Source of the DNA: Eubacteriales bacterium
Lineage (GTDB): Bacteria; Bacillota; Clostridia; Oscillospirales; CAG-272
Direction of reading: 5' to 3'
Assembly: GCA_045543555.1 (NCBI GenBank)
Contig: JAZQMQ010000020.1
Location: 2,911 to 66,910, forward strand
Length of the DNA: 64,000 nucleotides
Shown here: positions 14,147 to 33,385 of the stretch, in pieces
Position numbering within the stretch: the stretch's first letter is position 1
Layout: every line of letters starts with the position of its first letter
Notes under the pieces: generated by a model
Told to the model about the DNA's origin: nothing
What the model saw: the letters and a program-made list of their open reading frames with translations, nothing else
The model's database searches: none
Translations under genes and position numbers: made by a program

Positions 14147-14171
14147 TGTTTTCTCCTTATTTGCAGAGTCG

Positions 14172-14816
14172 TTAGTCCTCGTTTTGCTCACCGAGCATCT
14201 GGTTTAGGTGCTTAGACAAAAGCGCAAGAGAACACGCCATATTTTCATTTTGAACGAGGACTCCTTCGGGCACAGTAATGTGCGCGGGAGCAAAATTCCA
14301 TATTGCCTTAATGCCTGCTTCCACAAGCATATCGCATACCGCTTGAGCGGCGTGAGCAGGAGTTGTTATTATACCTATCTTCACGTTATTCTTTAAGCAG
14401 TAATTTGCGATATCGTCTGTGGAAAGTATCTCCTTGCCGTCCACACGGCACCTAACAAGCGCAGGGTTCATATCAAATCCCGCAACTATATTAAAGCCGT
14501 ATTCAGCGAAGCCACGATAAGACATAAGTGCTCTTCCAAGATTACCTGCACCCACGAGAATTGCGGGATTAACTGAATTATATCCAAGAAATTCCTTCAA
14601 TTCGCTTATTAAGGTCGCAACGTTATAACCGACCTTGGGTTTCCCGCCTGAACTGACAGCGGATAGGTCTTTTCGGACTTGAACGTCGTTTAAACCGAGC
14701 TTTTTCGCTATTTCGGTGGAGGATATGTTACCATCAGCATCAAGCGTCTTAAGAAAATTAAGATAATGAGGCAGGCGTTGCAGTGTATTAAGCGATACCT
14801 GTTGGCTTGATTCCAT
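14172..14816 (-). CDS. rex: redox-sensing transcriptional repressor Rex
   Basis: Start at ATG 14816 (MESSQQVSLNTLQRLPHYLNFL). The track start at 14840 is a TTG. Winged-helix N-terminus plus Rossmann GAGNLGRAL. Confidence 0.9.
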   Translation of the reverse strand: MESSQQVSLNTLQRLPHYLNFLKTLDADGNISSTEIAKKLGLNDVQVRKDLSAVSSGGKPKVGYNVATLISELKEFLGYNSVNPAILVGAGNLGRALMSYRGFAEYGFNIVAGFDMNPALVRCRVDGKEILSTDDIANYCLKNNVKIGIITTPAHAAQAVCDMLVEAGIKAIWNFAPAHITVPEGVLVQNENMACSLALLSKHLNQMLGEQNED

Positions 14817-14868
14817 TATTATTCTCCGTTCAATATGCAAGATTGCATTTATAATCCTGCATTTTCAT

Positions 14869-14897
14869 ATTATATACTAAAGATAACAATTTGTCAA
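14869..14897 (-). promoter_or_regulatory. sigma-A promoter of rex
   Basis: Minus strand: TTGACA (14897-14892), 17 nt, TATAAT (14874-14869). Confidence 0.6.
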
Positions 14898-14924
14898 TGG
14901 GGGCGCAATAAATTTCGCCCCCAT
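14897..14924 (-). terminator. GC-rich hairpin after the transporter gene (weak terminator in the relevant orientation)
   Basis: ATGGGGGCG-10 nt-CGCCCCCAT. The T-run is on the plus side only, so read-through into rex is plausible. Confidence 0.45.
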
Positions 14925-14936
14925 TTTTATATTATG

Positions 14937-16202: not shown

Positions 16203-16205
16203 TTT

Positions 16206-17819: not shown

Positions 17820-17833
17820 CTTACCCGTCCTCC

Positions 17834-18508
17834 TTATTTCTCAAAATCTCTGTTGTTATACATTTCCTTAAGCTCCTCAGCGGTCTTGCTCATAATATCG
17901 CGAAGAGCCTCCTCGGTTGCACCGTTTTCGATTTCAGCAACTCTCTCGAGGAGGTGCTGAGTTTCGGGAGCGAGATACTTACCGGTGAGACGGCGGGACA
18001 GAAGTCCTACCTGACCGTGAGTGATACCCGCAGGGCATCTGGAGGAGCAAACACCGCACATTACGCAGTCAAAGGACTCCTCTGCGCACTTTTCGTACTC
18101 GCCTCTCTGAGCGTAAGCAATGTACTGCATAACGTTAAGACCCTGAGTACAAGCCTTGGTGCAGGCGTTACAGCCTACGCAAGCGTAAATTTCGGGGTAA
18201 AGCTGCATCATTATCTGTTCGGTGGGCTTTACCTTCTCGATATCGTAGGGCTGCTTAATAAGGGGGAAGAAAGGAAGGGTCGCAATGTACATATTGTCTT
18301 CAACCTTTGTCTGACATGCAAGACATGTCTTCAGCTCTCGTTCACCCTTTATACGATAAATGGTCGCACAAGCACCGCAGAAGCCACAACGGCATCCTAC
18401 TCCGCGTACGAGCTGATAGCCCGCATACTCCATTGCTCCCATAATTGTAAGATTAGACGGCACCTCGTACTTTTTGCCGTAAAGATATATGTTTACCATA
18501 TTTTCCAT
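17834..18508 (-). CDS. FrdB/SdhB-like iron-sulfur protein
   Basis: 224 aa. N-terminal CRCGFCGAC...C (2Fe-2S-like), then CVGCNACTKAC and CVMCGVCSSRCP cluster motifs. Confidence 0.75.
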   Translation of the reverse strand: MENMVNIYLYGKKYEVPSNLTIMGAMEYAGYQLVRGVGCRCGFCGACATIYRIKGERELKTCLACQTKVEDNMYIATLPFFPLIKQPYDIEKVKPTEQIMMQLYPEIYACVGCNACTKACTQGLNVMQYIAYAQRGEYEKCAEESFDCVMCGVCSSRCPAGITHGQVGLLSRRLTGKYLAPETQHLLERVAEIENGATEEALRDIMSKTAEELKEMYNNRDFEK

Positions 18509-18522
18509 AGTATGTTACCTCA

Positions 18523-19347
18523 TCAATATTCATCAGGCAATGCGCCAAGCTTATCGTAACGGAATACCGGTCCGTCCTTGCAGACGTATTTGCTTCCAAT
18601 GTTACAGCGTCCACATTTACCGATACCGCACTTCATACGAAGCTCCATTGTAGTGTACACCTGCTCCTCAGTAAAGCCCAGCTCCTTCAGAGCCGCAAGC
18701 GTAAATTTGATCATAATGGGAGGACCGCAAACAAGTACGGTCTTGCTTATATCGGGCTCGAGCTCCTTTACGTAGTTGGGAACGAAGCCGACGTGTCCGT
18801 CCCAACCCTCCTGCTCACGGTCGATGGTAAGATGGACGTTAACGCCCGCCTCGGTCATCCACTCCTCAATTATTTCCTTGTAATCAACAAGGTCATCCTT
18901 GGAGCGTGAGCCGTAAACGATGTCTATGCTTCCGTAATTTTCTCTGTAGTGACGGCAGTAATTTATAACCGAGCGAAGAGGCGCAAGTCCGATTCCGCCC
19001 GCAATAAAGAGCAGGTCCTTGCCCTTGAGCTCCGTTTCAACGGGGAAGGAATTTCCGTAAGGGCCTCTGACGGTTACGTACTGACCTACCTCCATAGCGT
19101 GAAGCCACTCGGTAAGACATCCGCACTTCTTGATGCTGAATTCCATATACTCGGTATTCGTGGGAGATGAGGTTATGGAAAACATAGCCTCGCCCACACC
19201 GGGAATGGAAAGCATCGCACACTGACCGGGCATATGGTCAAAGGGCTTGACTCCGTCGGGAGTTACTACCCTGAAGGTCTTTACGTCGGGGGTATCGATA
19301 CGTATATCGGTTACTACTCCGACCACTGGGATAAGTGTTTCGTTCAT
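18523..19347 (-). CDS. flxA: FNR-like NAD(P)H:flavin oxidoreductase with C-terminal 2Fe-2S (FlxA / HydG / AsrB type)
   Basis: 274 aa. GGIGLAPL nucleotide-binding motif and CGIGKCGRC cluster motif. Confidence 0.75.
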   Translation of the reverse strand: MNETLIPVVGVVTDIRIDTPDVKTFRVVTPDGVKPFDHMPGQCAMLSIPGVGEAMFSITSSPTNTEYMEFSIKKCGCLTEWLHAMEVGQYVTVRGPYGNSFPVETELKGKDLLFIAGGIGLAPLRSVINYCRHYRENYGSIDIVYGSRSKDDLVDYKEIIEEWMTEAGVNVHLTIDREQEGWDGHVGFVPNYVKELEPDISKTVLVCGPPIMIKFTLAALKELGFTEEQVYTTMELRMKCGIGKCGRCNIGSKYVCKDGPVFRYDKLGALPDEY

Positions 19348-20372
19348 TACTTTTCCTCCTTAAAGGCCTTCATTACCTTGACGATATTCATGGAGATGGG
19401 GCACTTGCTCAGACATCTGCCGCAACCCACACAGCTGAAGATACCGTCGTTGTTTGCGGGATAGTAAACGAGCTTGTGCATAAATCTCTGCCTGAATCTT
19501 TCAAGCTGAGATACACGGGGATTTCCGTGCGCCATTTTGGTGAAATCGGAATACATGCAGGAATCCCAGCATCTGAATCTCTTGATGCCGCTTCCCGTGT
19601 CGAAATCCTTTATGTCATAGCACTGGCAGGTGGGACAAACGAATGTACAGGTACCGCAACCGATACAAGACTCCGAAAGACCTGCCCATTTGTCGGAATC
19701 AAAGTACTCCATCATCTTTTCGGGAGTAAAGCCGTCGGTGGTAAGGGACGCAAGCGGAAGCTCAGCCTTTGCGCTGTATATCCCGGTCTTGATGTCCCAT
19801 ACGGGCTCGTCATCGGATTCGGTAAGAGAGGTCCCGATGCTCTCGATGAGAGCCTTTCCCTTCTCTGTTACCGCCTCAAGATAAACCTCGTCTCCGTTTA
19901 CCCAAGCGGAAACGTCGCCCTCAGGCTCTGCACAGTTGATGCCGAAGGTCTGACAGAAGCAGGTCTCCCGCATCATATCGGGGTTACAAGCGACTGCAAT
20001 GGTGGTGCAATGCTCACGTCTGCTCTTGTAATAGGTATCGACGGGCTCGGACAAAAATACTCTGTCGAGAATTTCGAAGGACTTGACGTCGCAGGCACGG
20101 AGTCCGAATACCGTAAAATCCTCGGTCTCGCTTCTTACGTCGATAATTTCGATCTTCTTGCCCTCACGCTTGAAATCAACAAGATTTTCGGTCTGGGGGA
20201 AGAAGAAATCCTTAGGAGTTCTGACCTTGTCGCATTTTTCGTTTGCGTCAGCCTTCCACTCCTTGAAGGGCTTATGGGTGTCGCTTACGTCGGCACCGTC
20301 GGGATCGGGCACATAGAGACGCTGAAGCGAAGCGATAGCGGAGAAAAGCTCGTTTAAAGTTGTTTTAAGCAT
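19347..20372 (-). CDS. flxB: 4Fe-4S dicluster protein (FlxB / HydB / AsrA type)
   Basis: Start taken at ATG 20372 (MLKTTLNELF), preceded by GAGGAGG. CIGCGTCTFVCPTCQC and CVGCGRCLSKCP motifs. TAATG overlap with flxA. Confidence 0.7.
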   Translation of the reverse strand: MLKTTLNELFSAIASLQRLYVPDPDGADVSDTHKPFKEWKADANEKCDKVRTPKDFFFPQTENLVDFKREGKKIEIIDVRSETEDFTVFGLRACDVKSFEILDRVFLSEPVDTYYKSRREHCTTIAVACNPDMMRETCFCQTFGINCAEPEGDVSAWVNGDEVYLEAVTEKGKALIESIGTSLTESDDEPVWDIKTGIYSAKAELPLASLTTDGFTPEKMMEYFDSDKWAGLSESCIGCGTCTFVCPTCQCYDIKDFDTGSGIKRFRCWDSCMYSDFTKMAHGNPRVSQLERFRQRFMHKLVYYPANNDGIFSCVGCGRCLSKCPISMNIVKVMKAFKEEK

Positions 20373-21354
20373 TTTCCTTTCCTCCTCTTTCGTGAACGAT
20401 ACTCGGCTCGGCGTCGCCGTAGGTGTAGTTGGTAAGGGGAGAACGGCTCTCCATATCCTCACCCGCCTGATACTCGCCGTAAAGCTCGTTTATATCCTTG
20501 ATAAACTTACGGTTGAGCAGGTGAAGGGGAATGTGCTGAGGACATACTCTGCTGCACTCACCGCAGTCGGTACAGCGTCCCGCTACGTGGAACGCTCTTA
20601 TGATATGGAACATATTTTCCTCAAAGGAGGTAGCCGCCGCCTTCTGTGCCACACCCGATGCATCGTTGTCGAATACACATTTTTCGCAGGTGCAGGCGGG
20701 ACAAGCGTTACGGCAGGCGTTACATCTGATGCAACGGGAAAGCTCACCTCTCCAGAATTCGTATCTTTCCTCGGGAGTCATATTTTCGAGGGCGGCAACC
20801 TGATCAAAGCGGTCACAGTCGTCCACCTTATCTCCCTCCTCGCAGAGAAGCTCGTCGCATATGGGATGCTTCTTGCTCTTGCAGGATGCACATTTTTCAA
20901 GAAGTGCCTCGTAAATGGGAAGCTCCCTTGCAGTATCACCAAGACCGTAAACGGTAAGCACACCGTCACGCTCGGTAACGTTTTTAATGGTCGCAACGCC
21001 GCTCTTGGCTCTGACGGCATCAATATCCGCCTTGCCGAAGCACTCGATACCGATAGCGTATACGTTTTCTCTTATAATTCTGTGCTCCTTGAGAAGCTGT
21101 GCGAAGCTGTAGCTGTCGCAGGGCTTGAGGAATACCAGCACCTTTCCTTCTTTTCTGCTCTCTTTTACGAGATACTTGGAAAGGTTTGCTCCGCAGAAAG
21201 CGGAATAGACGAAATCCGCCTCAATTTCCTCCTTGGTCTCAAACACCGCGGGGGTAATATCGTAAACAAAATCGCCCTTTTTCCAACCGAGCACACGGCT
21301 TACCGCACCGCTTGAAAGAAGCTCGATCGCCTTATTTTTCATCATTTCTTGCAT
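20365..21354 (-). CDS. flxC: iron-sulfur protein (FlxC-type)
   Basis: 329 aa. CIRCNACRNACPACTC and CTDCGECSRVCP motifs. Overlaps both neighbours. Confidence 0.65.
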   Translation of the reverse strand: MQEMMKNKAIELLSSGAVSRVLGWKKGDFVYDITPAVFETKEEIEADFVYSAFCGANLSKYLVKESRKEGKVLVFLKPCDSYSFAQLLKEHRIIRENVYAIGIECFGKADIDAVRAKSGVATIKNVTERDGVLTVYGLGDTARELPIYEALLEKCASCKSKKHPICDELLCEEGDKVDDCDRFDQVAALENMTPEERYEFWRGELSRCIRCNACRNACPACTCEKCVFDNDASGVAQKAAATSFEENMFHIIRAFHVAGRCTDCGECSRVCPQHIPLHLLNRKFIKDINELYGEYQAGEDMESRSPLTNYTYGDAEPSIVHERGGKENA

Positions 21355-21779
21355 CGGAGGTCCTCCAATCTGCGATTCTCACCGAGGTCGGTGACTGTCT
21401 TTACGAAGCTGTTCATGGTTTCCGCAAACTTCTGACCCTCAGCGGCAGATACCCATTCAACTCTCGTTCTGTCTCTTTCGATACCGAGGTAGTCGAGCAT
21501 CGAGAACAGAAGGGTCATACGGCGCCTTGCATAGTAGTTACCCGTAGTATAGTGACAGTCGCCGGGGTGACAACCGCAAATTATAACGCCGTCCGCACCT
21601 CTCTGGAAGGCACGGAGGATGAACATGGGATTTACTCTGCATGAACAGGGCACTCTGATTATCTTAACGTCGGCAGGATACTGAAGACGGTTGGTTCCCG
21701 CAAGGTCAGCGCCCGCGTAAGAGCACCAGTTACAGCAGAAGGCTACTATTTTGGGCTTGAATTCATTATTTACTTGCAT
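21342..21779 (-). CDS. flxD: MvhD-family (methyl-viologen-reducing hydrogenase delta subunit-like) protein, FlxD
   Basis: 145 aa. KIVAFCCNWCSY...VPCSCRV...GVIICGCHPGDCHY is the MvhD signature. Confidence 0.85.
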   Translation of the reverse strand: MQVNNEFKPKIVAFCCNWCSYAGADLAGTNRLQYPADVKIIRVPCSCRVNPMFILRAFQRGADGVIICGCHPGDCHYTTGNYYARRRMTLLFSMLDYLGIERDRTRVEWVSAAEGQKFAETMNSFVKTVTDLGENRRLEDLRCKK

Positions 21780-23761
21780 ATTGCGTCAACCTCCGCCATT
21801 ATCTGTGCATTTGTGAAGCCCTTAAGGTCCATAGCGCCCGAAGGACAAGCAACGGTACAAGCACCGCAGCCCTGACATACCGCTTCGTTAACAGAAGCAA
21901 CTCTGCGAATGAGGGTGGTACGGTTGGGACCTCTGAATTCCTTATCGGAATAGGTGATTGCGCCGTAAGGACATACCTTTTCACAGGAGGAGCATCCGTT
22001 ACAGAGCATCTCGTCGGAATGAGCAACACAGGGGTTGCAGGTAAGCTTATTCTTATTAAGAAGACCGATAACCTTTGCCGCACAAGCGGAGGCCTGAGAA
22101 ACGGTCTCGGGAATATCCTTGGGGCCCTGACATACGCCCGAGAGGAAGATGCCCGCCGTAGGGCTCTCAACGGGACGGAGCTTGGGGTGTGCCTCGGTGA
22201 AGAAATCGTTTGTATCCATACTTGCGGTAAGCTTGGTAGCAAGAGGTCTTGCGGAGCTATCGGGCTCGATAGCGGTTGCGAGAACAACCATATCCGCGCT
22301 TATCTTCAGCTGCTTGCCCTCGATAAGATCGGATGCACGTACCGTGAGAGTACCGTCGGGCTCCGGAAGAACCTTTCCGACCATTCCTTTAACGTAATGA
22401 ACACCGTATTCCTCAACCGCACGGCGATAGAACTCGTCAAAATTCTTACCGGGCGTACGAACGTCGATATAGAACACGTACACCTCGGTGTCGGGATATT
22501 TTTCCCTTATGAGCATAGCGTGCTTTGCGGTGTACATACAGCATATCTTGGAGCAATAGCTCTTGCCCTTGTCGTCGGAGCATCTTGAGCCCACGCACTG
22601 TACGAACACGATGGTGTGCGGGTGGGTCTTATCGGAGGGACGGAGAAGCGTTCCGCCGTTAGGGCCTGCGGCGTTCATAAGACGCTCAAGCTCAAGGGAG
22701 GTAACTACGTCCTTGCTCTGATTGTATGCAAACTCATCGTACTTGTCGAGCTTGATGGGATTGAAGCCGGTTGCAACGACGATGGCACCGTACTGCTCGT
22801 TTATATAGCTGTCTGTCTGCTTGTAATCGATAGCGCCAACCGTACAAACCTTTGCGCAAAGGCCGCACTTACCGCTTTTCAGCATAGTGCAATAATCTGC
22901 ATCGATGGTTGCAACCTTCGGTACTGCCTGAGCGAAGGGTATATATACTGCGCGACGGTTATCAAGACCGAGATTGAAGGCATTCGGAACCTTCTTCTGA
23001 GGACATTTTTCTGTACAAAGACCGCAGCCCGTACACTTATTTTCGTCAACGTATCTCGCCTTGCGCTTGATGGTAACGTTGAAATTACCGACGAAGCCCT
23101 TTACGTCCTCGACCTCGGAATAGGAAAGAATCCTTATCTTTTCATGTTGAGCACAATCGACCATTTTAGGCGTAAGGATACAAGCGGCACAGTCGAGGGT
23201 CGGGAATGTCTTGTCTATCTGCGCCATCTTTCCTCCGATGGTCGCCTCCTTCTCGACTATGTCGACCTCAAAGCCCGCATCGGCAATATCAAGTGCGGTC
23301 TGGATTCCCGCAATACCGCCTCCGATAACGAGGGCACGCTTGACAACGGGGCTCTCGCCTGCGGTGAGGGGTGCGTTAAGATGTACCTTTGCTATAGCTG
23401 CACGTCCGAGGATAATTGCCTTTTCGGTCGCCTCCTCGACGTTCTTATGTATCCACGATACCTGCTCTCTGATGTTTGCTATCTCGACCATATAGGGATT
23501 AAGTCCCGCCGCCGTCGCAGTTTTGCGGAAGGTGGCCTCGTGCATACGGGGTGAGCAGGAGCATACAACCACTCCCGTAAGAGCGTTATCCTTTATTGCG
23601 TCCTTAATGAGATTCTGTCCTGCCTCAGAGCACATATACTGATATTCGGTGGAGATAACTACACCGGGCTCGTGCGAAAGAGCCTCCGCTACCGCCTTAA
23701 CGTCCACGGTCGCAGCAATATTCGTACCGCAATGGCAGACAAATACTCCAATTCTCTGCAT
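21770..23761 (-). CDS. hdrA: heterodisulfide reductase subunit A-like flavoprotein
   Basis: 663 aa. N-terminus MQRIGVFVCHCGTNIA, FAD motif ALVIGGGIAGIQTALDIA, several 4Fe-4S motifs (CTGCGLCTEKCP, CNGCSSCEKVCP, CQGCGACTVACP). Confidence 0.9.
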   Translation of the reverse strand: MQRIGVFVCHCGTNIAATVDVKAVAEALSHEPGVVISTEYQYMCSEAGQNLIKDAIKDNALTGVVVCSCSPRMHEATFRKTATAAGLNPYMVEIANIREQVSWIHKNVEEATEKAIILGRAAIAKVHLNAPLTAGESPVVKRALVIGGGIAGIQTALDIADAGFEVDIVEKEATIGGKMAQIDKTFPTLDCAACILTPKMVDCAQHEKIRILSYSEVEDVKGFVGNFNVTIKRKARYVDENKCTGCGLCTEKCPQKKVPNAFNLGLDNRRAVYIPFAQAVPKVATIDADYCTMLKSGKCGLCAKVCTVGAIDYKQTDSYINEQYGAIVVATGFNPIKLDKYDEFAYNQSKDVVTSLELERLMNAAGPNGGTLLRPSDKTHPHTIVFVQCVGSRCSDDKGKSYCSKICCMYTAKHAMLIREKYPDTEVYVFYIDVRTPGKNFDEFYRRAVEEYGVHYVKGMVGKVLPEPDGTLTVRASDLIEGKQLKISADMVVLATAIEPDSSARPLATKLTASMDTNDFFTEAHPKLRPVESPTAGIFLSGVCQGPKDIPETVSQASACAAKVIGLLNKNKLTCNPCVAHSDEMLCNGCSSCEKVCPYGAITYSDKEFRGPNRTTLIRRVASVNEAVCQGCGACTVACPSGAMDLKGFTNAQIMAEVDAICK

Positions 23762-23781
23762 TTTTCTTGTCCTTTCGGGAA

Positions 23782-24159
23782 TTATTTTGTATATTTACGG
23801 AAAGCCGTTACGATAGCCTGCTGAGGCATATCGGGATCGAGAAGCTCGGGGATATCGTCAGGGGTAAGACGGTTACATCCCTGAGGACGGATGGCCATAA
23901 GCCTTACCGCCTCGATAAGCTTTGCGGGCTCGACACCTCTGGGGCATCGCTCTACACAAGCAAAGCAGGTGAGACATTTGTATACCGATTCCGAGTTCAG
24001 CAGGGCGTCAATATCGCCGTTTTCGACCATATATACGAACTGATGGGGATGATACTCCATCTCGCCGTAGGAGGGGCAGGTGCCGGAGCACTTACCGCAT
24101 TTCATACATTTTCTCGGGTTTACACCGCTTACTCGGATTATTTCTTCCTTCTTGTTCAT
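23782..24159 (-). CDS. hdrC: heterodisulfide reductase subunit C-like 4Fe-4S protein
   Basis: 125 aa. CMKCGKCSGTCP and CLTCFACVERCP. Confidence 0.8.
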   Translation of the reverse strand: MNKKEEIIRVSGVNPRKCMKCGKCSGTCPSYGEMEYHPHQFVYMVENGDIDALLNSESVYKCLTCFACVERCPRGVEPAKLIEAVRLMAIRPQGCNRLTPDDIPELLDPDMPQQAIVTAFRKYTK

Positions 24160-24950
24160 TTGGCGACATCCTCCTTAACTCCGAGAGCCTCCGCAAGAAG
24201 CTCGGTGAAGTACTTTATCTCCGCTCCGCCATCTCTGCACTGCTCGAGATTGTAAAGGCAGAGGGGACAAGCGGTGATAACAAGGTCTGCACCGAAGCCA
24301 TTTGCGCTGTTAAGCACGTCGGCGCTCTTTGAGAGTGCGGATGCCTTATCCTCTAGGGCAACGTAGCCACCGCAGCACTCGTTACGGTAGGGGTAGATAA
24401 CGGGCTCACCGCCGATGGCACGGATAAGGTCCTCAATTATCTTGGGGTCCTCAACATCGTCCATCGCCATGACCTTTCCGGGACGGAGAAGGAGACAGCC
24501 GTAGTATGCGGCGATCTTCTTGCCCGTAAAGGGGTTTACCACCTTTTCCTTAATCTTATCAAAGCCCACTCTGTCACGGAGAAGCTCAAGGAAATGAATA
24601 ACCTGAGTCTTACCCTCGTACTCACCCTCGGGCTTTTCATACATACGGACCTTCAGCTTGAAGTTTTCATCGTTCAAAAGATCGTTTCTCACTCTCTTCA
24701 GCACGTTGTGACAGGCGGAGCAAAGGGTCACAAGGTCTTCACCTCTCTTTTCCGCCGCATAAAGTGCTCTCACGGAGGAAAGCTTGTTTGCTATCTCGTT
24801 ACTTGCGGCATTATACGTACCTCCGCAGCACTGCCAGGTGTCAAGCTCGTTCAAGCCTACACCGAGGACCTCTGCTACGGCTCTTGCATATCTGTCAAGC
24901 TCCTTAGCCTTGGTCTTTAAGGTACAGCCGGGATAATAACTGTAAGTCAT
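24156..24950 (-). CDS. hdrB: heterodisulfide reductase subunit B-like protein (two CCG domains)
   Basis: 264 aa. YYPGC...WQCCGG...CSAC and YYGC...NECCGG...CPLC. Confidence 0.85.
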   Translation of the reverse strand: MTYSYYPGCTLKTKAKELDRYARAVAEVLGVGLNELDTWQCCGGTYNAASNEIANKLSSVRALYAAEKRGEDLVTLCSACHNVLKRVRNDLLNDENFKLKVRMYEKPEGEYEGKTQVIHFLELLRDRVGFDKIKEKVVNPFTGKKIAAYYGCLLLRPGKVMAMDDVEDPKIIEDLIRAIGGEPVIYPYRNECCGGYVALEDKASALSKSADVLNSANGFGADLVITACPLCLYNLEQCRDGGAEIKYFTELLAEALGVKEDVAK

Positions 24951-24968
24951 AACTTCATCCTTTCAGGT

Positions 24969-26345
24969 TTATACCATCTGCTCGGGGTGGAAGACCTCGT
25001 CGAAGCGCTCCTCGGTCAAAAATCCGAGAGCAACGCAGGCCTCTTTAAGCGAAATATTGTCCTTATACGCCTTCTTTGCGGTCTTTGCCGCATTTTCGTA
25101 GCCGATGTAGGGGTTAAGGGCGGTCACGAGCATAAGGGAATTCTTGAGATTGTGATCCATCTTCTCACGGTTTGCCTTAATGCCCACCGCACAGTTATTG
25201 TTGAAGGAAACTATGCTGTCCGCAAGGAGACGTACCGACTGAAGGAAATTATAAATACATACGGGCATGAACACGTTAAGCTCAAAGTTGCCCTGAGAAG
25301 CCGCCATGCCGACCGCAACGTCGTTACCCATTACCTGAACCGCAACCATCGTAACCGCCTCGCACTGAGTGGGGTTTACCTTACCGGGCATAATGGAGGA
25401 GCCGGGCTCGTTTTCGGGAATGAATATCTCACCGAGGCCGTCACGGGGACCCGAAGCAAGCCATCTTACGTCGTTTGCGATCTTCATCATATCGCAGGCA
25501 AGAGCCTTAAGTGCTCCGTGTGCAAAAACAAGCTCGTCCTTGGAGGTGAGAGCGTGAAATTTATTGCCTGCGGTAACGAAAGCCTTACCGGTTATCTCGG
25601 ATACCGCCTCTGCGACCGCAGTATCGAAGCCCTTGGGAGCGTTAAGACCCGTACCGACGGCAGTGCCGCCGAGAGCAAGCTCGTGAAGGGGCTTGAGGGA
25701 CATAGCTATAAGCTCTCTGTCTCTTTCAAGCGAGCTTCTCCAACCGCTGATCTCCTGAGAGAACTTTATGGGGGTTGCATCCTGAAGATGAGTACGTCCG
25801 CACTTTACGGCGTCCTCGTTTTCGCTTTCAAGACGCTTGAAGGTGTCGATAAGCAGGTCAACTGCGGGAAGAAGCTTATCCTCTATTCCGATCACCGCCG
25901 CAATGTGCATTGCGGTGGGGAAGGTATCGTTTGATGACTGAGACATATTGATGTCGTCGTTGGGGTGGAGAAGCTTTTTGCCCGCAAGCTCGTTGCCTCT
26001 GTTGGCGATGACCTCGTTTGCGTTCATGTTGGACTGAGTGCCGCTTCCCGTCTGCCATACGACGAGGGGGAAATGATCGTTTAACTGACCCGAAATGACC
26101 TCGTCACATGCTGAGCAGATAGCACGAAGCTTTTCCTCGGTCATCTTCTCGGGGCGAAGGGTGGAGTTTGCCATTGCCGCCGCCTTTTTGAGAACACCGA
26201 AGGCGTGAGTGATCTCACGGGGCATTATCTCGTTGCCTACGCCTATGCGGAAGTTTTCTGAGCTTCTCTGTGTCTGAGCCGCCCAATATTTATCTGCGGG
26301 GACTTTTACCTCGCCCATCGAATCGTGTTCAATACGAAATTCCAT
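24969..26345 (-). CDS. fumC: class II fumarate hydratase
   Basis: 458 aa. GSSIMPGKVNPTQCEA signature. Confidence 0.95.
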   Translation of the reverse strand: MEFRIEHDSMGEVKVPADKYWAAQTQRSSENFRIGVGNEIMPREITHAFGVLKKAAAMANSTLRPEKMTEEKLRAICSACDEVISGQLNDHFPLVVWQTGSGTQSNMNANEVIANRGNELAGKKLLHPNDDINMSQSSNDTFPTAMHIAAVIGIEDKLLPAVDLLIDTFKRLESENEDAVKCGRTHLQDATPIKFSQEISGWRSSLERDRELIAMSLKPLHELALGGTAVGTGLNAPKGFDTAVAEAVSEITGKAFVTAGNKFHALTSKDELVFAHGALKALACDMMKIANDVRWLASGPRDGLGEIFIPENEPGSSIMPGKVNPTQCEAVTMVAVQVMGNDVAVGMAASQGNFELNVFMPVCIYNFLQSVRLLADSIVSFNNNCAVGIKANREKMDHNLKNSLMLVTALNPYIGYENAAKTAKKAYKDNISLKEACVALGFLTEERFDEVFHPEQMV

Positions 26346-26357
26346 CTTGCCTCTCCT

Positions 26358-27302
26358 TCATATGTTGAGCTGATTTATTACTTCTTTGAGCTTGTCTGCG
26401 CTGTAACGGAGCTTCGCGATCTCCTCTTCCGTCAAGGGAGAGATGATCTTTCCGTTTACTCCGCCCTTTCCAACAATGGAAAGAATGCTGAGACAAACGT
26501 CGCTGATGCCGTATTCACCGTTCATCATAGTGGACACCGAAAGTGCAGTATCGATGCCTCTGAAGATGCTGGAGCAAATATTGTTAACCGTGAGAGCTAT
26601 AGCGTAGTAGGTAGCTCCCTTTGCGGTGATAATTGTTGAACCGGACTTTCTTACGTACTCCTCGATCTCATCGCGGTTAAAGCCGCAACCGTCGATCTGA
26701 AGGCCCTTGGACTGAGCGTAAGCGTCGATAGGTGTGCCCGATATGGTTGCGATAGACCACGGCACGAAGGAAGTATCACCGTGCTCACCGAAAACGTTTG
26801 CATGAACGTTCTGCATACTAATGCTGAAGTTTTCAGCAAGACGAGAACGAAGACGTGCTGTATCAAGGAGCGCACCACTTCCGATTATCTGCTTTTCGGG
26901 AAGACCCGAGCACTTACAGAAAACATACGTAAGTATATCAACGGGGTTACTTACGACGATATACACCGCGTTGGGAGCAACACTCGTTATTTTCGGAATG
27001 ATGCTCTTGGTGATGTTGACGTTTGTCTGTGCAAGGTCAAGCCGGGACTGTCCCGGACGTCTTGCGATACCGGAGGTAAGCACCACGATATCAGAATCTC
27101 TTGCATCCTCGTAGTCACCTGCGTGAATGTTGATGGGCGAAATAAACGGCGCGCCCTGTCTGATATCCATTGCTTCACCAAACGCCTTCTGCTCGTTGAT
27201 ATCGATAAGAACCACCTCTGCAGCATTACCGCTGACCGCAAGAGTAAACGCGATAGTCGCACCTACAGATCCGGCTCCTATGATAGACACTTTTCTTCCC
27301 AT
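26358..27302 (-). CDS. mdh: LDH-family 2-hydroxyacid dehydrogenase with Arg at the Q102 position (predicted malate dehydrogenase)
   Basis: 314 aa. VSIIGAGSVGAT. The specificity loop GIARRPGQSRLDL aligns as RRPGQSR against LDH QKPGETR and MDH RKPGMSR. Catalytic GEHGDT. Confidence 0.8.
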   Translation of the reverse strand: MGRKVSIIGAGSVGATIAFTLAVSGNAAEVVLIDINEQKAFGEAMDIRQGAPFISPINIHAGDYEDARDSDIVVLTSGIARRPGQSRLDLAQTNVNITKSIIPKITSVAPNAVYIVVSNPVDILTYVFCKCSGLPEKQIIGSGALLDTARLRSRLAENFSISMQNVHANVFGEHGDTSFVPWSIATISGTPIDAYAQSKGLQIDGCGFNRDEIEEYVRKSGSTIITAKGATYYAIALTVNNICSSIFRGIDTALSVSTMMNGEYGISDVCLSILSIVGKGGVNGKIISPLTEEEIAKLRYSADKLKEVINQLNI

Positions 27303-27394: not shown

Positions 27395-27403
27395 ATGCAA
27401 AAA
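27386..27403. promoter_or_regulatory. 18-nt perfect palindrome overlapping the -35 (operator candidate)
   Basis: TTTTTGCA-AA-TGCAAAAA. Confidence 0.45.
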
Positions 27404-27409
27404 AAGCAT

Positions 27410-27429
27410 ATCGATATATTTTTATCGAT
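27410..27429. promoter_or_regulatory. inverted repeat at about -45 to -65 (LysR-type site candidate)
   Basis: ATCGATA-TATTTT-TATCGAT, perfect 7-nt arms. Fits the T-N11-A architecture. Confidence 0.4.
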
Positions 27430-27581
27430 TGGTGCAATGGTATTTTTTATATGGGGTAATATTAATAAATCAACAAATTATCGGTCTAAAAATAACGACT
27501 TTTAGTGTTTTTTTCGTTTGCGCAGTCAAATTTGTTGTTATATTGCATTATTCACATTCCTAGTTGGAATTAATCAATGTA

Positions 27582-27620
27582 AAAATGCAGATATCACCAC
27601 AAGGGTTTTATCTGCATTTT
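27582..27620 (-). terminator. terminator after the LysR gene
   Basis: AAAATGCAGAT...ATCTGCATTTT 11-nt arms. On the minus strand the tail is ATTTTTAC. Confidence 0.6.
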
Positions 27621-27658
27621 AACCAATTTTATCAGCTTACACTTATACAATATTACCA

Positions 27659-28594
27659 TTAAACAACGCCGAAGGCAACCTTGTTCTTAGTCTCATACAG
27701 CTTATCAATAAAGCGTCTGTCGAGCTCACTGAGCCTTGTTCCCTCCCTGCAAACCATAACGTCCTTATACTTATGTGCCGGAGCATTGCAGGATCTCTGT
27801 ATAAGCCCGTATCGTCTGAGTATGCTTTCGGGAGTCGGAGAAACCCACATAAAAGATGAAGGCATCATAGAAAGCAGCAGGAATGCGTCGGTGCCCTTAT
27901 AGAGATTTATAACCTTTTTGTCCGAGAGTGCAAGGGATACGTTTTCGCTCTGCACAACGTTTATATACGGCACGTTACAGTCGCCGTGAGTGACCTCAAC
28001 ATAGGAAGCAAAATCCGAAAGACTGAGCTTTTCCTTGCTTGCAAGCGGATGCTCCTTTGACATGAGCGCGAGGGATTCGAATTCCCATATCGGTTCGCAC
28101 TTAAGCCCCTTATCTCTGCAAAAATCGGCAAAATAGGTTTCATACTGCACCTGATAACGAATAACTCCGATATTGAATATTCCGTCGGAAACCATATTTA
28201 CCCCGTCAATTGAGGTTGTTTCTCCGAGATTCACATCGATTGGCTTATCGTTGTCAAGAGAGGATATAAATTCCATAGCCGCAACCGAAGCATAGCTTCC
28301 CCTTGGTACACATACGTTAAAGAACTGCATATCCGGATCATTTTCGCGACATATAGACTGCATTTGCTCTATTTGTGAGAGGATATTCTTTGCATAACGC
28401 AGAAATTCTTGTCCCTTATCTGTAGGAACAACTCCGCGCGAGGTTCTCTTGAATATTACTATACCAAGCGTGTCCTCAAGCTCCTTAATTGATTTGCTCA
28501 AGTTTGGCTGACCCATGAAAAGGTTCTCCGCAGCCTGTGTTATAGACCCTGTTTTTTCAACCTCGAGAGCATATTTGAAATGCTGTGTGTTCAT
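27659..28594 (-). CDS. LysR-family transcriptional regulator
   Basis: Start at ATG 28594 (MNTQHFKYALEVEKTGSITQAAENLFMGQPNLSKSIKELE) with GGAG 6 nt upstream. The track start is a TTG. Confidence 0.85.
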   Translation of the reverse strand: MNTQHFKYALEVEKTGSITQAAENLFMGQPNLSKSIKELEDTLGIVIFKRTSRGVVPTDKGQEFLRYAKNILSQIEQMQSICRENDPDMQFFNVCVPRGSYASVAAMEFISSLDNDKPIDVNLGETTSIDGVNMVSDGIFNIGVIRYQVQYETYFADFCRDKGLKCEPIWEFESLALMSKEHPLASKEKLSLSDFASYVEVTHGDCNVPYINVVQSENVSLALSDKKVINLYKGTDAFLLLSMMPSSFMWVSPTPESILRRYGLIQRSCNAPAHKYKDVMVCREGTRLSELDRRFIDKLYETKNKVAFGVV

Positions 28595-28617
28595 TTTGTT
28601 CTCCAATCGTTTTCCGT

Positions 28618-29853
28618 TTACAGCAGTGTCTTGTCAAAAAAGTGATTTTTATAAGACTTAACCTTATTATGCGTTATTTCCATAAATTTAAGCGTTCGTA
28701 TTATGTCATTATCCTTCGGGTTTTTAAAAGAATACACTATTCCCTTTTCCCTAATGACATTCTTTGCCTTGACCTTCATTTCGGGGTCCTTCAGATACTT
28801 CATCAAGATCCTTTTAGGCACCGAAGCCCAAACCGATTCGTTATCTCCGTATGTGGTGCAGTCACGTTCTTCATCAAAAACAACGTCGGAAACAAGCTCT
28901 GCCATTAAATTATATCCCGCAGCACGCACAAAATAGCTTGATCTGCCGTGTCTTGGATTAAGCTCGAAAAAGCAGAAGCTTCCGCTTTCCGCGTCATACT
29001 TGACATCAATATTGGAAAATCCGACAAAGCCTATTCCGTTTAAGAAGTCTTCGATCTGTTTATACAGCTCCGGAATTGACACGCTCATTATTCCGGCATA
29101 ATTACCGATCATATGGGGCGCGTATTCCTCAAGAAGAGCTTGTCCCATACACATAAACCTGACTTTTCCGTCTATTCCCGAATATGAATTCACGACAAAA
29201 GACGTCGTATCTCCCCCACGTATAAGCTTCTGAATTATCAGCTTTCCCTTATAACCGGTCTGATTCATTTTCGTAACGACTGCCAGGTACTCCTCTTCAC
29301 TTTTCAGGAAATATACCTTCTTCTTTCCTTCAAAGCTGCAGTGCAAATATTCACTTGCATTGGAATTTTCGGGCTTCATAACTATCGGGAAGCTGAAAGG
29401 TAGGTCTTTACATACAGTAAGCCTGTCCTTTACATCACATATCACCGTCTTTGGATAGTACAGTCCCTTATCCTCACACAACGAGTAGAATCCGTCCTTG
29501 GTGCTTATCCTCTCCATTAGGTCCGGAGAAACGAATTTGTTTGCTATCCTTCCCTCAAAAAGATGATAATTTTTAACGAGTAGCTCTGTATAGTAGTCTG
29601 CGCAGGGGATAACGATAAGCTTCCCCATTTTTTCACGTTCCTTAAGCTCCCTCAGAAGGGCGTTAACAAATATTTCGGGCTGATCGAAGCCCTTCACCGT
29701 CTTAACGGTAAGGATACTGCTTCTGTCGGTCTGTACCAGTGCGGTAGCGCACATACAAAGCGGCTTTACTCCGTATCTGTCATTAAAGCATCTTGCCGTG
29801 GCATATGCATTATCGTCGCTTCCGAGAATTATCGGAAAGAATTTATTATCCAT
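28618..29853 (-). CDS. ATP-grasp carboxylate-amine ligase (D-aspartate-ligase-like)
   Basis: 411 aa. N-terminus PIILGSDDNAYATARCF, ATP-grasp core (IVMKPENS, LIIQKLIRGG, FFELNPRHGRS). Confidence 0.7.
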   Translation of the reverse strand: MDNKFFPIILGSDDNAYATARCFNDRYGVKPLCMCATALVQTDRSSILTVKTVKGFDQPEIFVNALLRELKEREKMGKLIVIPCADYYTELLVKNYHLFEGRIANKFVSPDLMERISTKDGFYSLCEDKGLYYPKTVICDVKDRLTVCKDLPFSFPIVMKPENSNASEYLHCSFEGKKKVYFLKSEEEYLAVVTKMNQTGYKGKLIIQKLIRGGDTTSFVVNSYSGIDGKVRFMCMGQALLEEYAPHMIGNYAGIMSVSIPELYKQIEDFLNGIGFVGFSNIDVKYDAESGSFCFFELNPRHGRSSYFVRAAGYNLMAELVSDVVFDEERDCTTYGDNESVWASVPKRILMKYLKDPEMKVKAKNVIREKGIVYSFKNPKDNDIIRTLKFMEITHNKVKSYKNHFFDKTLL

Positions 29854-29867
29854 ATTCGCTCATTCTC

Positions 29868-31700
29868 TTATCTCAGTATAAAATATTGCTCGTACCAGAG
29901 CAGGAAAGAATAAACCGTATATATGATTCTGCCGTAATTTGCTTTTCCTGCCCTGTGATCATCGAGCATCGAGATCAGCTTATCACGGTCAAAGAATTCA
30001 CTTACGTATTCCCTATCAAAGCATTCCTTCACAATAGAGTAATACTTTTCCTCTTTTATCCATAGACGGAAAGGAACCATAAATCCACGCTTTTTCCTGT
30101 TTGACCAATCGCTAGGAATGTGTCTGTATGCCGCAGCTCTGAAAGCAGCCTTCGAGTGACGGTAACGCACCTTATTTTCATCATCAAGTGTTCTCGCGAC
30201 CGCCCACACCTCTCGGTCAAGGAACGGAACGCGAAGCTCAAGTGAATGAGCCATTGTCATCTTATCTGCCTTTAGGAGTATATCTCCCTGAAGCCAAAGG
30301 TGCATATCGAGATACATCTTTTTTTCAAGCTCGGATCTATTCTTCACAGCCTCATAATACGGCGCTGTAACATCGGTTCTGTTAATTGAAGAACGGTATT
30401 TTTCAGTCAGCAACGAATCTGCAGTGCTCTGACTCATAATATTGGCCTGACCTATATACTCATTTTCGGGAACGGAAGCATTTTCTGTCAAGAATCGTCC
30501 CACTCCGTGTCCGACCTTTCCAAACATCTTTCTTGCAAGCTTCCGAATGCAGAGAGGAAGTTTTCTGTATGTCATTCCTCTTTTTGAGCAGGTATATTCG
30601 TCATATCCTCCGAAAAGCTCATCCGCGCCTTCTCCGCTGAGAACGACCTTAACATCCTCTGCTGCAAGAGCAGACAGGTAATAAAGCGGAACAGCAGAAA
30701 GATTTGCATGCGGCTCATCAGAATGATATTGCACCATTGGCAGTGCGGCAAAAAACTCGTCGGGGGTTATCTCTTTTTTGCGGTTTTTCATCCCTTTTTC
30801 ACGGCAAAGCTCCTCAGCAAGCGAGGTTTCATCAAACCCTGCAGCATCAAAACCTACGGAAAACGTTTTATCGGGCTTTGCCACCGTGGCAATGTAGCTG
30901 CTGTCAACTCCGCCCGAAAGGAAGGAGCCTACCTCAACATCAGCTATTTTGTGGTATTCCACCGATGAGAGCACTGTCTTATCAATAATGTCGGCAGTTT
31001 CCTCTTCGCTTCTTACCTGTGGGGCGTATTCGAACGTATGATATTGCTTTATTTCCATTCCGCTATCGAGATTTAATGTAAAATATCTTCCGGGAAGGAG
31101 CTTATAAACATTTTTAAAGATCGTCTGCTCTATTGGAGAATATTGGAACTGAAGATACAAGGAGAGTATTTCGGGTGCAATCTCCTTTTTAAATGACGGA
31201 TGATGAAGAAACGACTTTATTTCCGAACCGAAAAAGTAGGTTCCGTCGATCTTTGACCAATAAAACGGCTTTATTCCGAACATATCTCTTGCACCGTATA
31301 TGCTTTCATTTTTTCTGTCATAGATAACAAAAGCAAACATTCCGCGAAGGTATGACGCCGCATCCTCACCGTACTGCATATAGGTATGGAGAATAACCTC
31401 AGTATCTGAATCGGTTGCGAACTCGTGTGAATATTTTTCTATAAGCTCTGCCCTGAGTTCTTTATAATTATATATCTCACCGTTGAAAACAATAACGTAG
31501 CGTCCGTCAGGGCTATATATTGGCTGATGACCTCCGTCCAGGTCGATGATGGACAGGCGTCGGAATCCAAGTGCAACGTCCTTTTCAACAAACTTACCGT
31601 CGCTGTCGGGTCCCCTATGAGCTATAGCTGCGCTCATATCGTCTATTGCTTTTTCTCTGTTATATTCGCCTTCTCCAAAGAAGCCGGTAAATCCGCACAT
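29868..31700 (-). CDS. asnB: asparagine synthase (glutamine-hydrolysing) family amidotransferase
   Basis: 610 aa. MCGF N-terminal nucleophile Cys, SGGVDSS PP-loop. Confidence 0.9.
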   Translation of the reverse strand: MCGFTGFFGEGEYNREKAIDDMSAAIAHRGPDSDGKFVEKDVALGFRRLSIIDLDGGHQPIYSPDGRYVIVFNGEIYNYKELRAELIEKYSHEFATDSDTEVILHTYMQYGEDAASYLRGMFAFVIYDRKNESIYGARDMFGIKPFYWSKIDGTYFFGSEIKSFLHHPSFKKEIAPEILSLYLQFQYSPIEQTIFKNVYKLLPGRYFTLNLDSGMEIKQYHTFEYAPQVRSEEETADIIDKTVLSSVEYHKIADVEVGSFLSGGVDSSYIATVAKPDKTFSVGFDAAGFDETSLAEELCREKGMKNRKKEITPDEFFAALPMVQYHSDEPHANLSAVPLYYLSALAAEDVKVVLSGEGADELFGGYDEYTCSKRGMTYRKLPLCIRKLARKMFGKVGHGVGRFLTENASVPENEYIGQANIMSQSTADSLLTEKYRSSINRTDVTAPYYEAVKNRSELEKKMYLDMHLWLQGDILLKADKMTMAHSLELRVPFLDREVWAVARTLDDENKVRYRHSKAAFRAAAYRHIPSDWSNRKKRGFMVPFRLWIKEEKYYSIVKECFDREYVSEFFDRDKLISMLDDHRAGKANYGRIIYTVYSFLLWYEQYFILR

Positions 31701-31715
31701 ATTTTACTCCGAATT

Positions 31716-33260
31716 TCAGTTATTTGCCGTAGAGACGGCAGCGTAATACTCCGAATAATATTTTTCAACCGCACCTGCGTCGGTTATATAGTCCTTGTAG
31801 CCGTTCGCTACTCTTTGGTTTGTCTCATTTCCCTTGCCGGCAATAAGAAGCACACTACTTTCACCCATTTCGTCAAGTGCCGTTCTTATAGCCGTCTCTC
31901 TGTCCTCAATTATCTTATAAGGGCATCCGGTTGCCTCAACGTTCTTTGCTATTTCCGCGCTGATGCTTTCAAAGGATTCGGATGAGGTATCATCCTCCGT
32001 TACATAAATAAAATCAGAATGTCTTCCCGCGGCATCTGCAAGATCATGACGGCGGTTAAACGCCTTATTTCCCGGGCAACCGAAAATAAACACTATTTTC
32101 TTATCCGGAAATTCTCTTTTTGCGCTTTTTGCCAAAGCCTCATAGCTCATGGTATTGTGTGCAAAATCAACTATAGCATTATATTTACCGTCACGACTTC
32201 TGTGAAGCTCCATTCTTCCCTCTACCGAGGTATGAGCTATCCCCTCATACATATATTCATACGGTACGTTGAGAATCGACAGCACGGAAATTGCCGCAAG
32301 CGCGTTATCGACGTTGAAAAATCCCGGTACCGTAAGCTTAAATGCACGGTCAAAAGTTTTGGTACGAACAGAGAAAAGTATTTCGTCACCTTCTTTTCTG
32401 ATGTTGTATCCATATATATCTGTTTTATCGTTTTTCGTACTGAATGTTGTTATTCCCTGCTTATCCTTAAGATACTCGCTCACCTCGTCATACCGGTCTG
32501 TATCGAGGTTAACGACTTTATTTTTTGATATATCGAAAAGTTTCAATTTGGATTTGAAGTAATCGTCATAATCGGGGTGTTCCACGGAGCTTATGTGATC
32601 GTATCCAATATTGAGGAAACAACCAATATCGTAGATTATTCCATCAACTCTACCGTACTTAAGTCCCTGTGATGATACCTCCATGCTCAGATATTCGGTA
32701 CCGTGATCCACCGCGGCAGCGAGATTTTTCTGAAGCTCCAAAGCTTCGGGGGTAGTGATTCTTGAGGGTATCTTTTCTTCGCCGATAAAGGTTGCAACCG
32801 TTGAAAAAAGGGCTGAATTAATTTTTCCTTGAGCCTTCTGCCATCTGTCAAGCGCAGCCTTTATAAAATACGCAACCGTTGTCTTACCTTTTGTCCCGGT
32901 CAAGCCTATGGTAGTCATTTTTTTTGCCGGCGAATCAAAGTGCATAACAGCGCAAACGCTCATTGCACGTCGTATATCGTTAACAAGGATAACCGGCAGA
33001 TCACACTCCGCATAAGCTTTCTCCGACACATAGGCAACAACACCCTTTTGAGATGCATCAAGGAGATACTCCACCTTAAAATTCTGCCCCTTACAGAAAA
33101 ACAGGGTATTTTCAGAAACTTCACGGTTGTCGTACGAAAGACATTGTATCACGCAATCGCAATCATCTGATGATACAAGTACCCCTTCAATTTCAAGAAG
33201 CGAGACAAACTCACTATATGTGTGCGCATATCCGCCGCTCACAATATCAACAACCGACAT
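31716..33260 (-). CDS. murE: MurE-type Mur ligase with non-canonical amino-acid-selection motif
   Basis: Start at ATG 33260 (GGAGG 6 nt upstream). GLTGTKGKTT, MEVSSQGL, DFAHN. DDTS lies where meso-DAP enzymes carry DNPR (YVTEDDTSSE). Confidence 0.85.
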   Translation of the reverse strand: MSVVDIVSGGYAHTYSEFVSLLEIEGVLVSSDDCDCVIQCLSYDNREVSENTLFFCKGQNFKVEYLLDASQKGVVAYVSEKAYAECDLPVILVNDIRRAMSVCAVMHFDSPAKKMTTIGLTGTKGKTTVAYFIKAALDRWQKAQGKINSALFSTVATFIGEEKIPSRITTPEALELQKNLAAAVDHGTEYLSMEVSSQGLKYGRVDGIIYDIGCFLNIGYDHISSVEHPDYDDYFKSKLKLFDISKNKVVNLDTDRYDEVSEYLKDKQGITTFSTKNDKTDIYGYNIRKEGDEILFSVRTKTFDRAFKLTVPGFFNVDNALAAISVLSILNVPYEYMYEGIAHTSVEGRMELHRSRDGKYNAIVDFAHNTMSYEALAKSAKREFPDKKIVFIFGCPGNKAFNRRHDLADAAGRHSDFIYVTEDDTSSESFESISAEIAKNVEATGCPYKIIEDRETAIRTALDEMGESSVLLIAGKGNETNQRVANGYKDYITDAGAVEKYYSEYYAAVSTANN

Positions 33261-33311
33261 ATAAACCTCCGCAAAAGTGGTCACAGTAACCTTATTTTAC
33301 TATTTCATATA

Positions 33312-33340
33312 ATTATATCATAATTACACACGGTTTTCAA
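33312..33340 (-). promoter_or_regulatory. sigma-A promoter of murE-asnB-ATP-grasp(-lysR)
   Basis: Minus strand: TTGAAA, 17 nt, TGaTATAAT. Confidence 0.6.
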
Positions 33341-33380
33341 GCGAAAAAGAAAATTTCCTCCGCTTTTCCGGAGGAAATTC
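33341..33380 (-). terminator. terminator of the dnaK operon / prmA
   Basis: AATTTCCTCCG-6 nt-CGGAGGAAATT stem followed on the minus strand by TTCTTTTTC. Confidence 0.75.
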
Positions 33381-33385
33381 TTATA

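Follow-up and report, generated by a model that had tools for sequence, protein, structure and literature searches.

The window analyzed here, a 64-kb stretch of contig JAZQMQ010000020.1 from a Eubacteriales bacterium, carries on its minus strand a four-gene unit encoding, in order of transcription, a MurE-type ligase, an AsnB/AsnH-type glutamine-dependent amidotransferase, an ATP-grasp carboxylate–amine ligase of the D-aspartate ligase (Asl) family, and a LysR-type transcriptional regulator. The first three genes probably serve three consecutive cytoplasmic steps in the synthesis of the peptidoglycan precursor, in which the amino acid at position 3 of the stem peptide is set, an acidic side branch is added to it, and the branch is amidated. 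A first-pass annotation of the same DNA had proposed that the trio performs these three functions, and the proposal is backed by the homology of the ATP-grasp protein to Asl, the recurrent adjacency of such ligases to AsnB and racemase genes, the linkage of the ligase gene to murE, and the fusion of the two in some relatives. The DNA and the translations of its open reading frames (ORFs) were read together with profile, structure, and synteny comparisons, for which we used the Pfam, NCBIfam (TIGR and PRK models with their cutoffs), and Rfam libraries, an AlphaFold2 (AF2) model, and Foldseek searches against the PDB.

Linkage and fusion of the MurE and ligase genes

The strongest single argument that the ATP-grasp ligase and MurE belong to one pathway is their fusion, in the manner of a Rosetta stone. 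In six related loci (L055, L060, L072, L073, L077, and L084), the two proteins are encoded together by a single uninterrupted ORF of approximately 915–950 amino acids. The carriers are two Hominicoprocola fusiformis isolates and related metagenome-assembled genomes (MAGs); an example is the fusion in L072 at 2841–5672, with the linker DKVHPAAPASSGKKAKKDFLPIILGSD.

Unfused genes show the same association. A scan of GTDB with one genome per species returned 489 relatives of the window ligase, the most similar of which shared 54% identity with it, and the best 80 of these 489 loci were compared. Among the Clostridia loci with sufficient upstream sequence (n = 44), MurE was encoded directly upstream of the ligase in 41, either as a MurE–AsnB–ligase trio, as in the window (17 loci), or as a MurE–ligase duo (24 loci), and the remaining three had AsnB and the ligase without MurE. 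In approximately 35 Paenibacillaceae loci, the ligase stood alone in all cases. The parts of the operon are all of known kind (a Lys-type MurE, an Asl, and an AsnH/AsnB1-type amidotransferase), and it is their arrangement that is new: in the literature, we found no description of a murE–asnB–asl operon or of a MurE::Asl fusion, and no account of their wide spread in Oscillospiraceae/Ruminococcus-like MAGs.

The ATP-grasp ligase and its family

The third gene (28618..29853, minus strand) encodes a protein of 411 amino acids, the predicted side-branch or cross-bridge ligase. Its AF2 model (predicted local distance difference test score, 90.3) has an ATP-grasp fold, and the catalytic E297-x-N299 and R301 are invariant across its homologues, in keeping with membership of the Asl family. 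General libraries were less specific: Pfam gave no match for the protein, NCBIfam gave only weak CPSase-like matches, the nearest sequence in the PDB was 2pn1 (E = 0.065), and a Foldseek search of the PDB with the model retrieved generic ATP-grasp folds at 10–17% identity. Full-length homology to Asl was found through Lactobacillaceae Asl-type ligases, which stood in for Aslfm of Enterococcus faecium and AslA of Lactococcus lactis themselves in this comparison. These ligases shared 31–37% identity with the window ligase at 98–99% coverage (E = 1e-59 to 1e-82), and the next ATP-grasp families had E >= 1e-12. The Pediococcus pentosaceus member, for example, was 34% identical over 410 residues (E = 1e-78). 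Homologues with 45–54% identity occurred in Clostridia MAGs, Paenibacillus, and Cohnella, and several homologues are named D-aspartate ligase by UniRef or JGI. When the ligase of Latilactobacillus curvatus was used as the query, only Lactobacillaceae proteins were among the top 120 matches listed, some of them again named D-aspartate ligase.

The neighbors of these more distant genes are informative. A tblastn search of PLSDB with the window ligase led to loci in Lactobacillaceae, Subdoligranulum, and Bacillus mycoides. In L. curvatus, genes for an aspartate-type racemase and aspS come directly before that for the homologue (33% identity, 98% coverage), and this racemase–ligase order is the arrangement of the racD–aslA operon described in L. 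lactis (PMC4155827). The Lactobacillus crispatus homologue (36.6% identity) follows immediately after asnB, and the genes for the ligase, a TIGR00035 racemase, and AsnB lie in this order in Subdoligranulum variabile and on a B. mycoides plasmid. That plasmid, pl546 (546 kb, conjugative), has a frameshifted Asl-type ligase gene, an amino-acid racemase gene, and an apparently disrupted asnB (L089, 5974–9822), and the cluster gives the impression of a mobile cross-bridge module in decay. Several other PLSDB "plasmid" records of 0.1–0.9 Mb among the matches (CP117684.1, CP033372.1, NZ_CP143580.1, and OY7257xx) are evidently mislabelled pieces of chromosomes, given that they hold the chromosomal core genes aspS, gltX, murE, and secA, which is a caveat for plasmid statistics.

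An exhaustive HMMER search recovered 300 cluster representatives of the family at E <= 1e-30. These included fusions to a TIGR00035 aspartate-type racemase (P0261 and P0296) and to FemAB cross-bridge transferases (P0278 and P0385), which tie the ligase family to wall cross-bridges. Other distant members were fused to a DegT/EryC1-type sugar aminotransferase or a response-regulator receiver domain (among P0259, P0330, P0353, P0357, and P0359). In a neighbor-joining tree, the Lactobacillaceae ligases split first, followed by the racemase-linked Subdoligranulum protein, and one last large clade held the window ligase together with all the Clostridial genes linked to MurE, with a Paenibacillus clade nested in it. 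The window ligase was placed near the base of the large clade, with L005 and L006. On these sequence comparisons, the window ligase belongs to the Asl family, broadly defined, within a sub-clade unlinked to racemases.

The window ligase thus resembles the characterized pairs of Asl and RacD in its fold, in its full-length identity to Lactobacillaceae orthologues, one of which lies directly 3' of a racemase gene, and in its predicted reaction, in which the omega-amino group of the position-3 residue would receive an acidic amino acid. It differs from them in that it has no linked racemase, follows murE (and asnB), is fused to murE in some relatives, and falls in a separate clade that includes solitary Paenibacillus genes; its substrate, moreover, is a predicted one.

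MurE and the amino acid at position 3

The first gene (31716..33260, minus strand) encodes a MurE-type ligase of 514 amino acids. The motifs GLTGTKGKTT, EVSSQGL, and DFAHN, which the first-pass annotation had noted, are all present in the translation, which has Mur_ligase_M (PF08245) and Mur_ligase_C (PF02875) domains. Residues 43–507 align with MurE of Thermotoga maritima, and the alignment with solved MurE structures begins in the UDP-binding N-domain and reaches the C terminus. The protein scored 309 bits against the murE subfamily model TIGR01085 (cutoff, 257.3). Its best equivalog model was that of the L-Lys ligase PRK14022, for which it scored 364 bits, below the cutoff of 536, and all the models for meso-diaminopimelic acid (mDAP) equivalogs were also under their cutoffs.

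A short motif differs between mDAP-adding (DNPR) and L-Lys-adding (D(D/N)P(N/A)) MurE enzymes, and the annotation had pointed out that it is DDTS in the window protein. The alignment bears this out, placing DDTS at the position of DNPR in the Mycobacterium tuberculosis and Escherichia coli enzymes and of DDPR in that of T. maritima. The Arg of DNPR contacts the distal carboxylate of mDAP, whereas in the L-Lys-adding MurE of Staphylococcus aureus, the epsilon-amino group is bound by two acidic residues, the leading Asp of the motif and the Glu in GKGxE (Ruane et al., PMC3829189). The window MurE lacks the Arg and retains both acidic residues. It further resembles the L-Lys enzymes of S. aureus and Enterococcus faecalis and the PRK14022 family in its three-domain Mur ligase structure and P-loop, and, like the Collinsella MurE and the Lys-type enzymes of E. 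faecalis and L. curvatus, it carries a two-residue DHISxxEHP insertion; the Subdoligranulum MurE has DNPR and no such insertion. It differs from the L-Lys enzymes in that DDTS departs from D(D/N)P(N/A), with loss of the Pro, and in its sub-cutoff score. In the corresponding column, EEDSG was the motif of most trios and of many duos, EDDP(G/A) occurred in other duos, and DDT(S/A) was confined to the window's own lineage (DDTS in the window and DDTA in its relative L090). This motif excludes an mDAP-type enzyme and is similar to that of the Lys/Orn type, for which the added residue would be L-Lys or L-Orn. The first-pass annotation was right to leave position 3 open.

Ornithine is considered because of a gene that follows the trio in relatives. 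The ligase gene of eight or nine trios is followed immediately, on the same strand, by a gene for an arginase-like protein (L010, 5051–5932; L013, 11246–12124; L038, 11245–12105; L024, L027, L028, L050, and L057; partial in L042). The products scored 170–191 bits against the arginase model TIGR01229, whose cutoff of 227.6 was not reached, and 56–74 bits against the agmatinase model. This arrangement hints that the Ruminococcus-like MAGs with a linked arginase gene feed dedicated L-ornithine to MurE. A tblastn search of the window itself for arginase found none.

Among the nearest named relatives of the window MurE is that of Collinsella (34.6% identity). In Collinsella aerofaciens (L094, 3979–7533), asnB lies immediately upstream of a MurE gene with the motif EDPA, and murI is located two genes further downstream.

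The AsnB-type amidotransferase

The second gene (29868..31700, minus strand) encodes a protein of 610 amino acids with GATase and Asn_synthase domains, in which the MCGF and SGGVDSS motifs listed in the first-pass annotation correspond to the Cys2 nucleophile and the PP-loop. It scored 506 bits against the family model TIGR01536 (cutoff, 267). A full-length comparison with the AsnB that adjoins the Asl-type ligase in L. crispatus gave 41% identity, and the AsnB of the Subdoligranulum ligase–racemase–AsnB cluster was 49% identical. AsnB adjoins an Asl-type ligase in four unrelated lineages and also adjoins murE.

Within the family, AsnH of L. lactis acts on D-Asp, and AsnB1 of Lactobacillus plantarum, AsnB of Bacillus subtilis, and LtsA of Corynebacterium glutamicum act on mDAP. 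The window protein shares with all of these a glutamine-dependent N-terminal-nucleophile Cys2, the PP-loop, and the TIGR01536 match, but its target carboxylate cannot be read from its sequence. The bridge residue is the likelier target because the window MurE is not of the mDAP type, although the protein may instead act as a free-asparagine synthetase. In its position, the window asnB is near murE, like L. plantarum asnB1, which is co-located with murE (PMC4155827), and near an Asl-type ligase gene, like asnB of L. crispatus.

Proposed pathway and the identity of the branch residue

In the pathway that we favor, MurE would add L-Lys or L-Orn at position 3. The Asl-family ligase would then form an acyl phosphate on the side-chain carboxylate of an acidic residue, most likely D-Asp, and join it to the omega-amino group of the position-3 residue, and the AsnH-like amidotransferase would amidate the alpha-carboxylate left free on the branch, giving D-iso-Asn. 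The product would be a wall of the A4 type with Lys/Orn–D-Asx, like those of E. faecium, Lactococcus, and many lactobacilli. We infer these substrates, and the order of the second and third steps, from the identities, family membership, linkage, and fusions of the genes described above.

Several observations weigh against this pathway. The first-pass annotation had suggested a search for an aspartate racemase, and a search covering the window and up to 10 kb around the 80 related loci found no gene of the TIGR00035 type, so that the racD–asl linkage typical of the Asl family is absent from the window locus. The racemase-linked ligases all lie outside the MurE-linked clade. The window MurE falls short of the L-Lys equivalog cutoff, and the Pro of the Lys-type motif is lost in DDTS, DDTA, and EEDSG alike. 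The nearest relatives from outside the Clostridia (45–48% identity) are solitary ligase genes of Paenibacillus and Cohnella, genera that are generally reported to have mDAP walls. Such solitary genes were present in L001, L017, L019, L020, and approximately 30 further Paenibacillus/Cohnella loci, and the nesting of their clade within the Clostridial MurE-linked clade suggests horizontal transfer. In S. variabile, the ligase–racemase–AsnB cluster (L088, 7980–11878) and a DNPR-type MurE (L096, 6001–7350) occur in one assembly, which would predict an mDAP–D-Asx branch or else a second, unseen MurE. The solitary Paenibacillus genes and the Subdoligranulum DNPR enzyme together indicate that the ligase family is not confined to Lys/Orn walls.

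The missing racemase makes it a real alternative, although hardly a probable one, that the same pathway operates with a different residue, in which case the ligases of the MurE-linked clade would add D-Glu or an L-amino acid, giving a Lys/Orn–D-Glx or other bridge. A racemase is never linked in this clade, whereas in the sister groups its gene neighbors that of the ligase or is fused to it, and D-Glu is supplied by MurI and would make a dedicated racemase needless; the window ligase also shares just 31–37% identity with the racD-linked ones, and A4 walls with D-Glu bridges exist. However, the clade arises inside the Asl family beside a racemase-linked member, and its AsnB–Asl adjacency is like that in L. 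crispatus, for which D-Asp bridges have been reported. The genome could, in addition, encode a racemase or a D-amino-acid transaminase at another site. ATP-grasp ligases for both D-Asp and D-Glu cross-links have been mentioned in the literature (PMC2922099).

A more far-reaching version can be put forward tentatively, and we think it unlikely to hold as a whole. In this version, the MurE-linked clade is a distinct, channelled two-enzyme unit, joined in one protein in some species, in which the atypical MurE (EEDSG or DDTS) would add L-Orn from the linked arginase, or some other residue, and the racemase-independent ligase would attach something different from D-Asp to the tripeptide ahead of the MurF step. 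This would be a chemotype undescribed for the Oscillospiraceae/Ruminococcus-like gut Clostridia.

Transcription unit, LysR regulator, and the role of the module

The unit begins just past the terminator of prmA (33350..33381, minus strand; a 13-pair stem followed by a T run), which marks its upstream boundary. Its sigma-70-type promoter (33312..33340, minus strand; TTGAAA-17-TATAAT with an extended TG, 11/12 match) lies approximately 45 nt before the MurE start and is the best promoter match in the region; its -10 element is kept in L090. For MurE, whose ORF extends to GTG 33284, ATG 33260 is the more likely start because GGAGG lies 5 nt before it and both the start and this Shine–Dalgarno sequence are kept in L090. 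The position of the Shine–Dalgarno sequence similarly makes ATG 28594 more likely than TTG 28606 as the start of the LysR gene (27659..28594, minus strand; ORF to TTG 28606), giving a protein of 311 amino acids. With these revised starts, the ORF coordinates agree with the four-gene order and the gaps of 15, 14, and 23 nt given in the first-pass annotation, and the gaps leave no room for terminators. The annotation had also placed the only terminator after lysR, and there we found an intrinsic hairpin with 20-nt arms (27579..27623, minus strand; dG -19.1 kcal/mol, z -5.5) closing the unit, the arms of which are identical in L090 with a diverged loop. A simple terminator scan overlooked this hairpin because its loop is long. 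The claim that one promoter drives all four genes has the strong match at 33340–33312 in its favor. It is plausible rather than firm, because promoter-like matches are not enriched across the region (17, versus 14.1 +/- 4.4 in shuffled sequences) and weaker matches occur inside genes (32206–32178, 30491–30462, and 28728–28700). An Rfam search gave no match to a leader RNA.

The regulator has the HTH_1 and LysR_substrate domains of a LysR-type protein. In L090, the order MurE–AsnB–ligase–LysR–Ldh/Mdh–fumarase is the same as in the window, with equal position and spacing of the LysR gene, and the identities to the window proteins are 63% for the ligase and 81% for MurE. In approximately 45 other loci, no LysR gene lies next to the module. 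Downstream of lysR, a block of 32 nt (27397–27429; AATCGATAAAAATATATCGATATGCTTTTTTT) is 100% conserved in L090 amid diverged intergenic DNA. It contains the palindrome ATCGATA-N6-TATCGAT (27410–27416/27423–27429) and lies just upstream of the -35 element of the mdh/ldh promoter (27395–27366). The palindrome is possibly an operator for the adjacent LysR, and its conservation at this site suggests that LysR acts downstream, probably controlling the mdh/fumarase operon. The placement of lysR in the wall-gene transcription unit, as first annotated, thus fits the arrangement shared by the window and L090, but the gene is not part of the module elsewhere. The most economical reading is that transcription of lysR in the window's lineage accompanies or closely follows that of the wall genes, and that the regulator lies outside the conserved module.

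These data bear on whether the genes form an accessory, conditional module with a second MurE paralog, through which a signal sensed by LysR would remodel the wall while a murE in the division and cell wall (dcw) cluster makes the bulk of it. The presence of LysR in the unit and its retention in L090, the scores of MurE under every equivalog cutoff, and the two ligase copies of one MAG (L008 and L021) are points in favor of this explanation, which we nevertheless consider improbable. LysR is missing at the approximately 45 other loci, and the palindrome upstream of the mdh promoter points it downstream. The module also lies among core genes, beside prmA and dnaJ in the window and among radA and tsaB in duo loci; the flank upstream of the unit is dnaK–dnaJ–prmA, and the region is not mobile. 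In E. faecalis, L. curvatus, and Vescimonas, too, the Lys-type murE is found outside the dcw cluster. The search for a second murE, which the first-pass annotation had proposed for the whole genome, was run by tblastn on the 64-kb window and found no further Mur ligase. The window MurE is probably the main MurE of the organism, and the word "dedicated" that the annotation applied to the module is doubtful because core genes surround this murE, as they do the single murE copy of Lactobacillales.

A co-directional cluster extends downstream of the operon (12860–27302, minus strand). It encodes an Ldh/Mdh-family dehydrogenase, a class II fumarase, HdrB-like (CCG), HdrC-like, and HdrA-like proteins, several ferredoxin-domain proteins, a PyrK-like flavoprotein, a fumarate-reductase-type flavoprotein (FAD_binding_2), an Asp-Al_Ex family permease, Rex, and an aspartate aminotransferase (PF12897), and it looks like a soluble Hdr-linked module for fumarate/aspartate respiration. 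Farther away (51141–54090, minus strand), two tandem overlapping genes encode proteins of 511 and 487 amino acids, each with a MutS domain V ATPase alone, which look like a pair of MutS-like paralogues.

Comparison with cyanophycin synthetase

In relatives such as H. fusiformis, the occurrence of a Mur ligase and an ATP-grasp domain in one polypeptide recalls the cyanophycin synthetase CphA1. The domain order is reversed, however, the MurE part is genuine and of full length, and the cyanophycin models fail, so that the analogy is architectural only. Three candidate assignments were rejected because their scores were far below the cutoffs: cyanophycin synthetase (76 versus 850 bits), the poly-gamma-glutamate synthase PgsB (20 versus 223), and MurT/GatD (22 versus 800 for MurT). 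It is very improbable that the operon makes something other than wall material, for instance a polymer of the cyanophycin or another poly-amino-acid kind or a small peptide metabolite, with AsnB as a housekeeping asparagine synthetase: cyanophycin synthetase does unite the two kinds of module and gave weak matches (76 bits; PDB 7lg5), and the ATP-grasp fold is similar to those of L-amino-acid ligases (3vot and 4wd3), but the MurE is full length, aligns with solved MurE structures, and exceeds the murE subfamily cutoff, and the FemAB and aspartate-type racemase fusions of the ligase family indicate wall cross-bridges.

Implications for the walls of gut Clostridia

A 2024 review describes the wall chemotype as uncharacterised for most Ruminococcaceae and Oscillospiraceae (PMC11382707), and our search of the literature on Ruminococcaceae wall types found nothing specific. 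From the operon and its approximately 40 relatives, walls other than the plain mDAP type, with Lys/Orn stems and an amidated acidic branch, are predicted for many Clostridia of the gut and rumen that are still uncultured. If this is true, the recognition of their muropeptides by NOD1 and NOD2, their sensitivity to lysozyme and cationic peptides, and the range of hydrolases able to cut their walls would all be affected. The MurE::ligase fusions are natural constructs for asking whether branch addition takes place on the tripeptide. The chemistry itself is known from lactic acid bacteria, and the interest of the operon, which is modest, lies mainly in what it allows genomes to predict about the wall chemotype of gut Clostridia not yet cultured.

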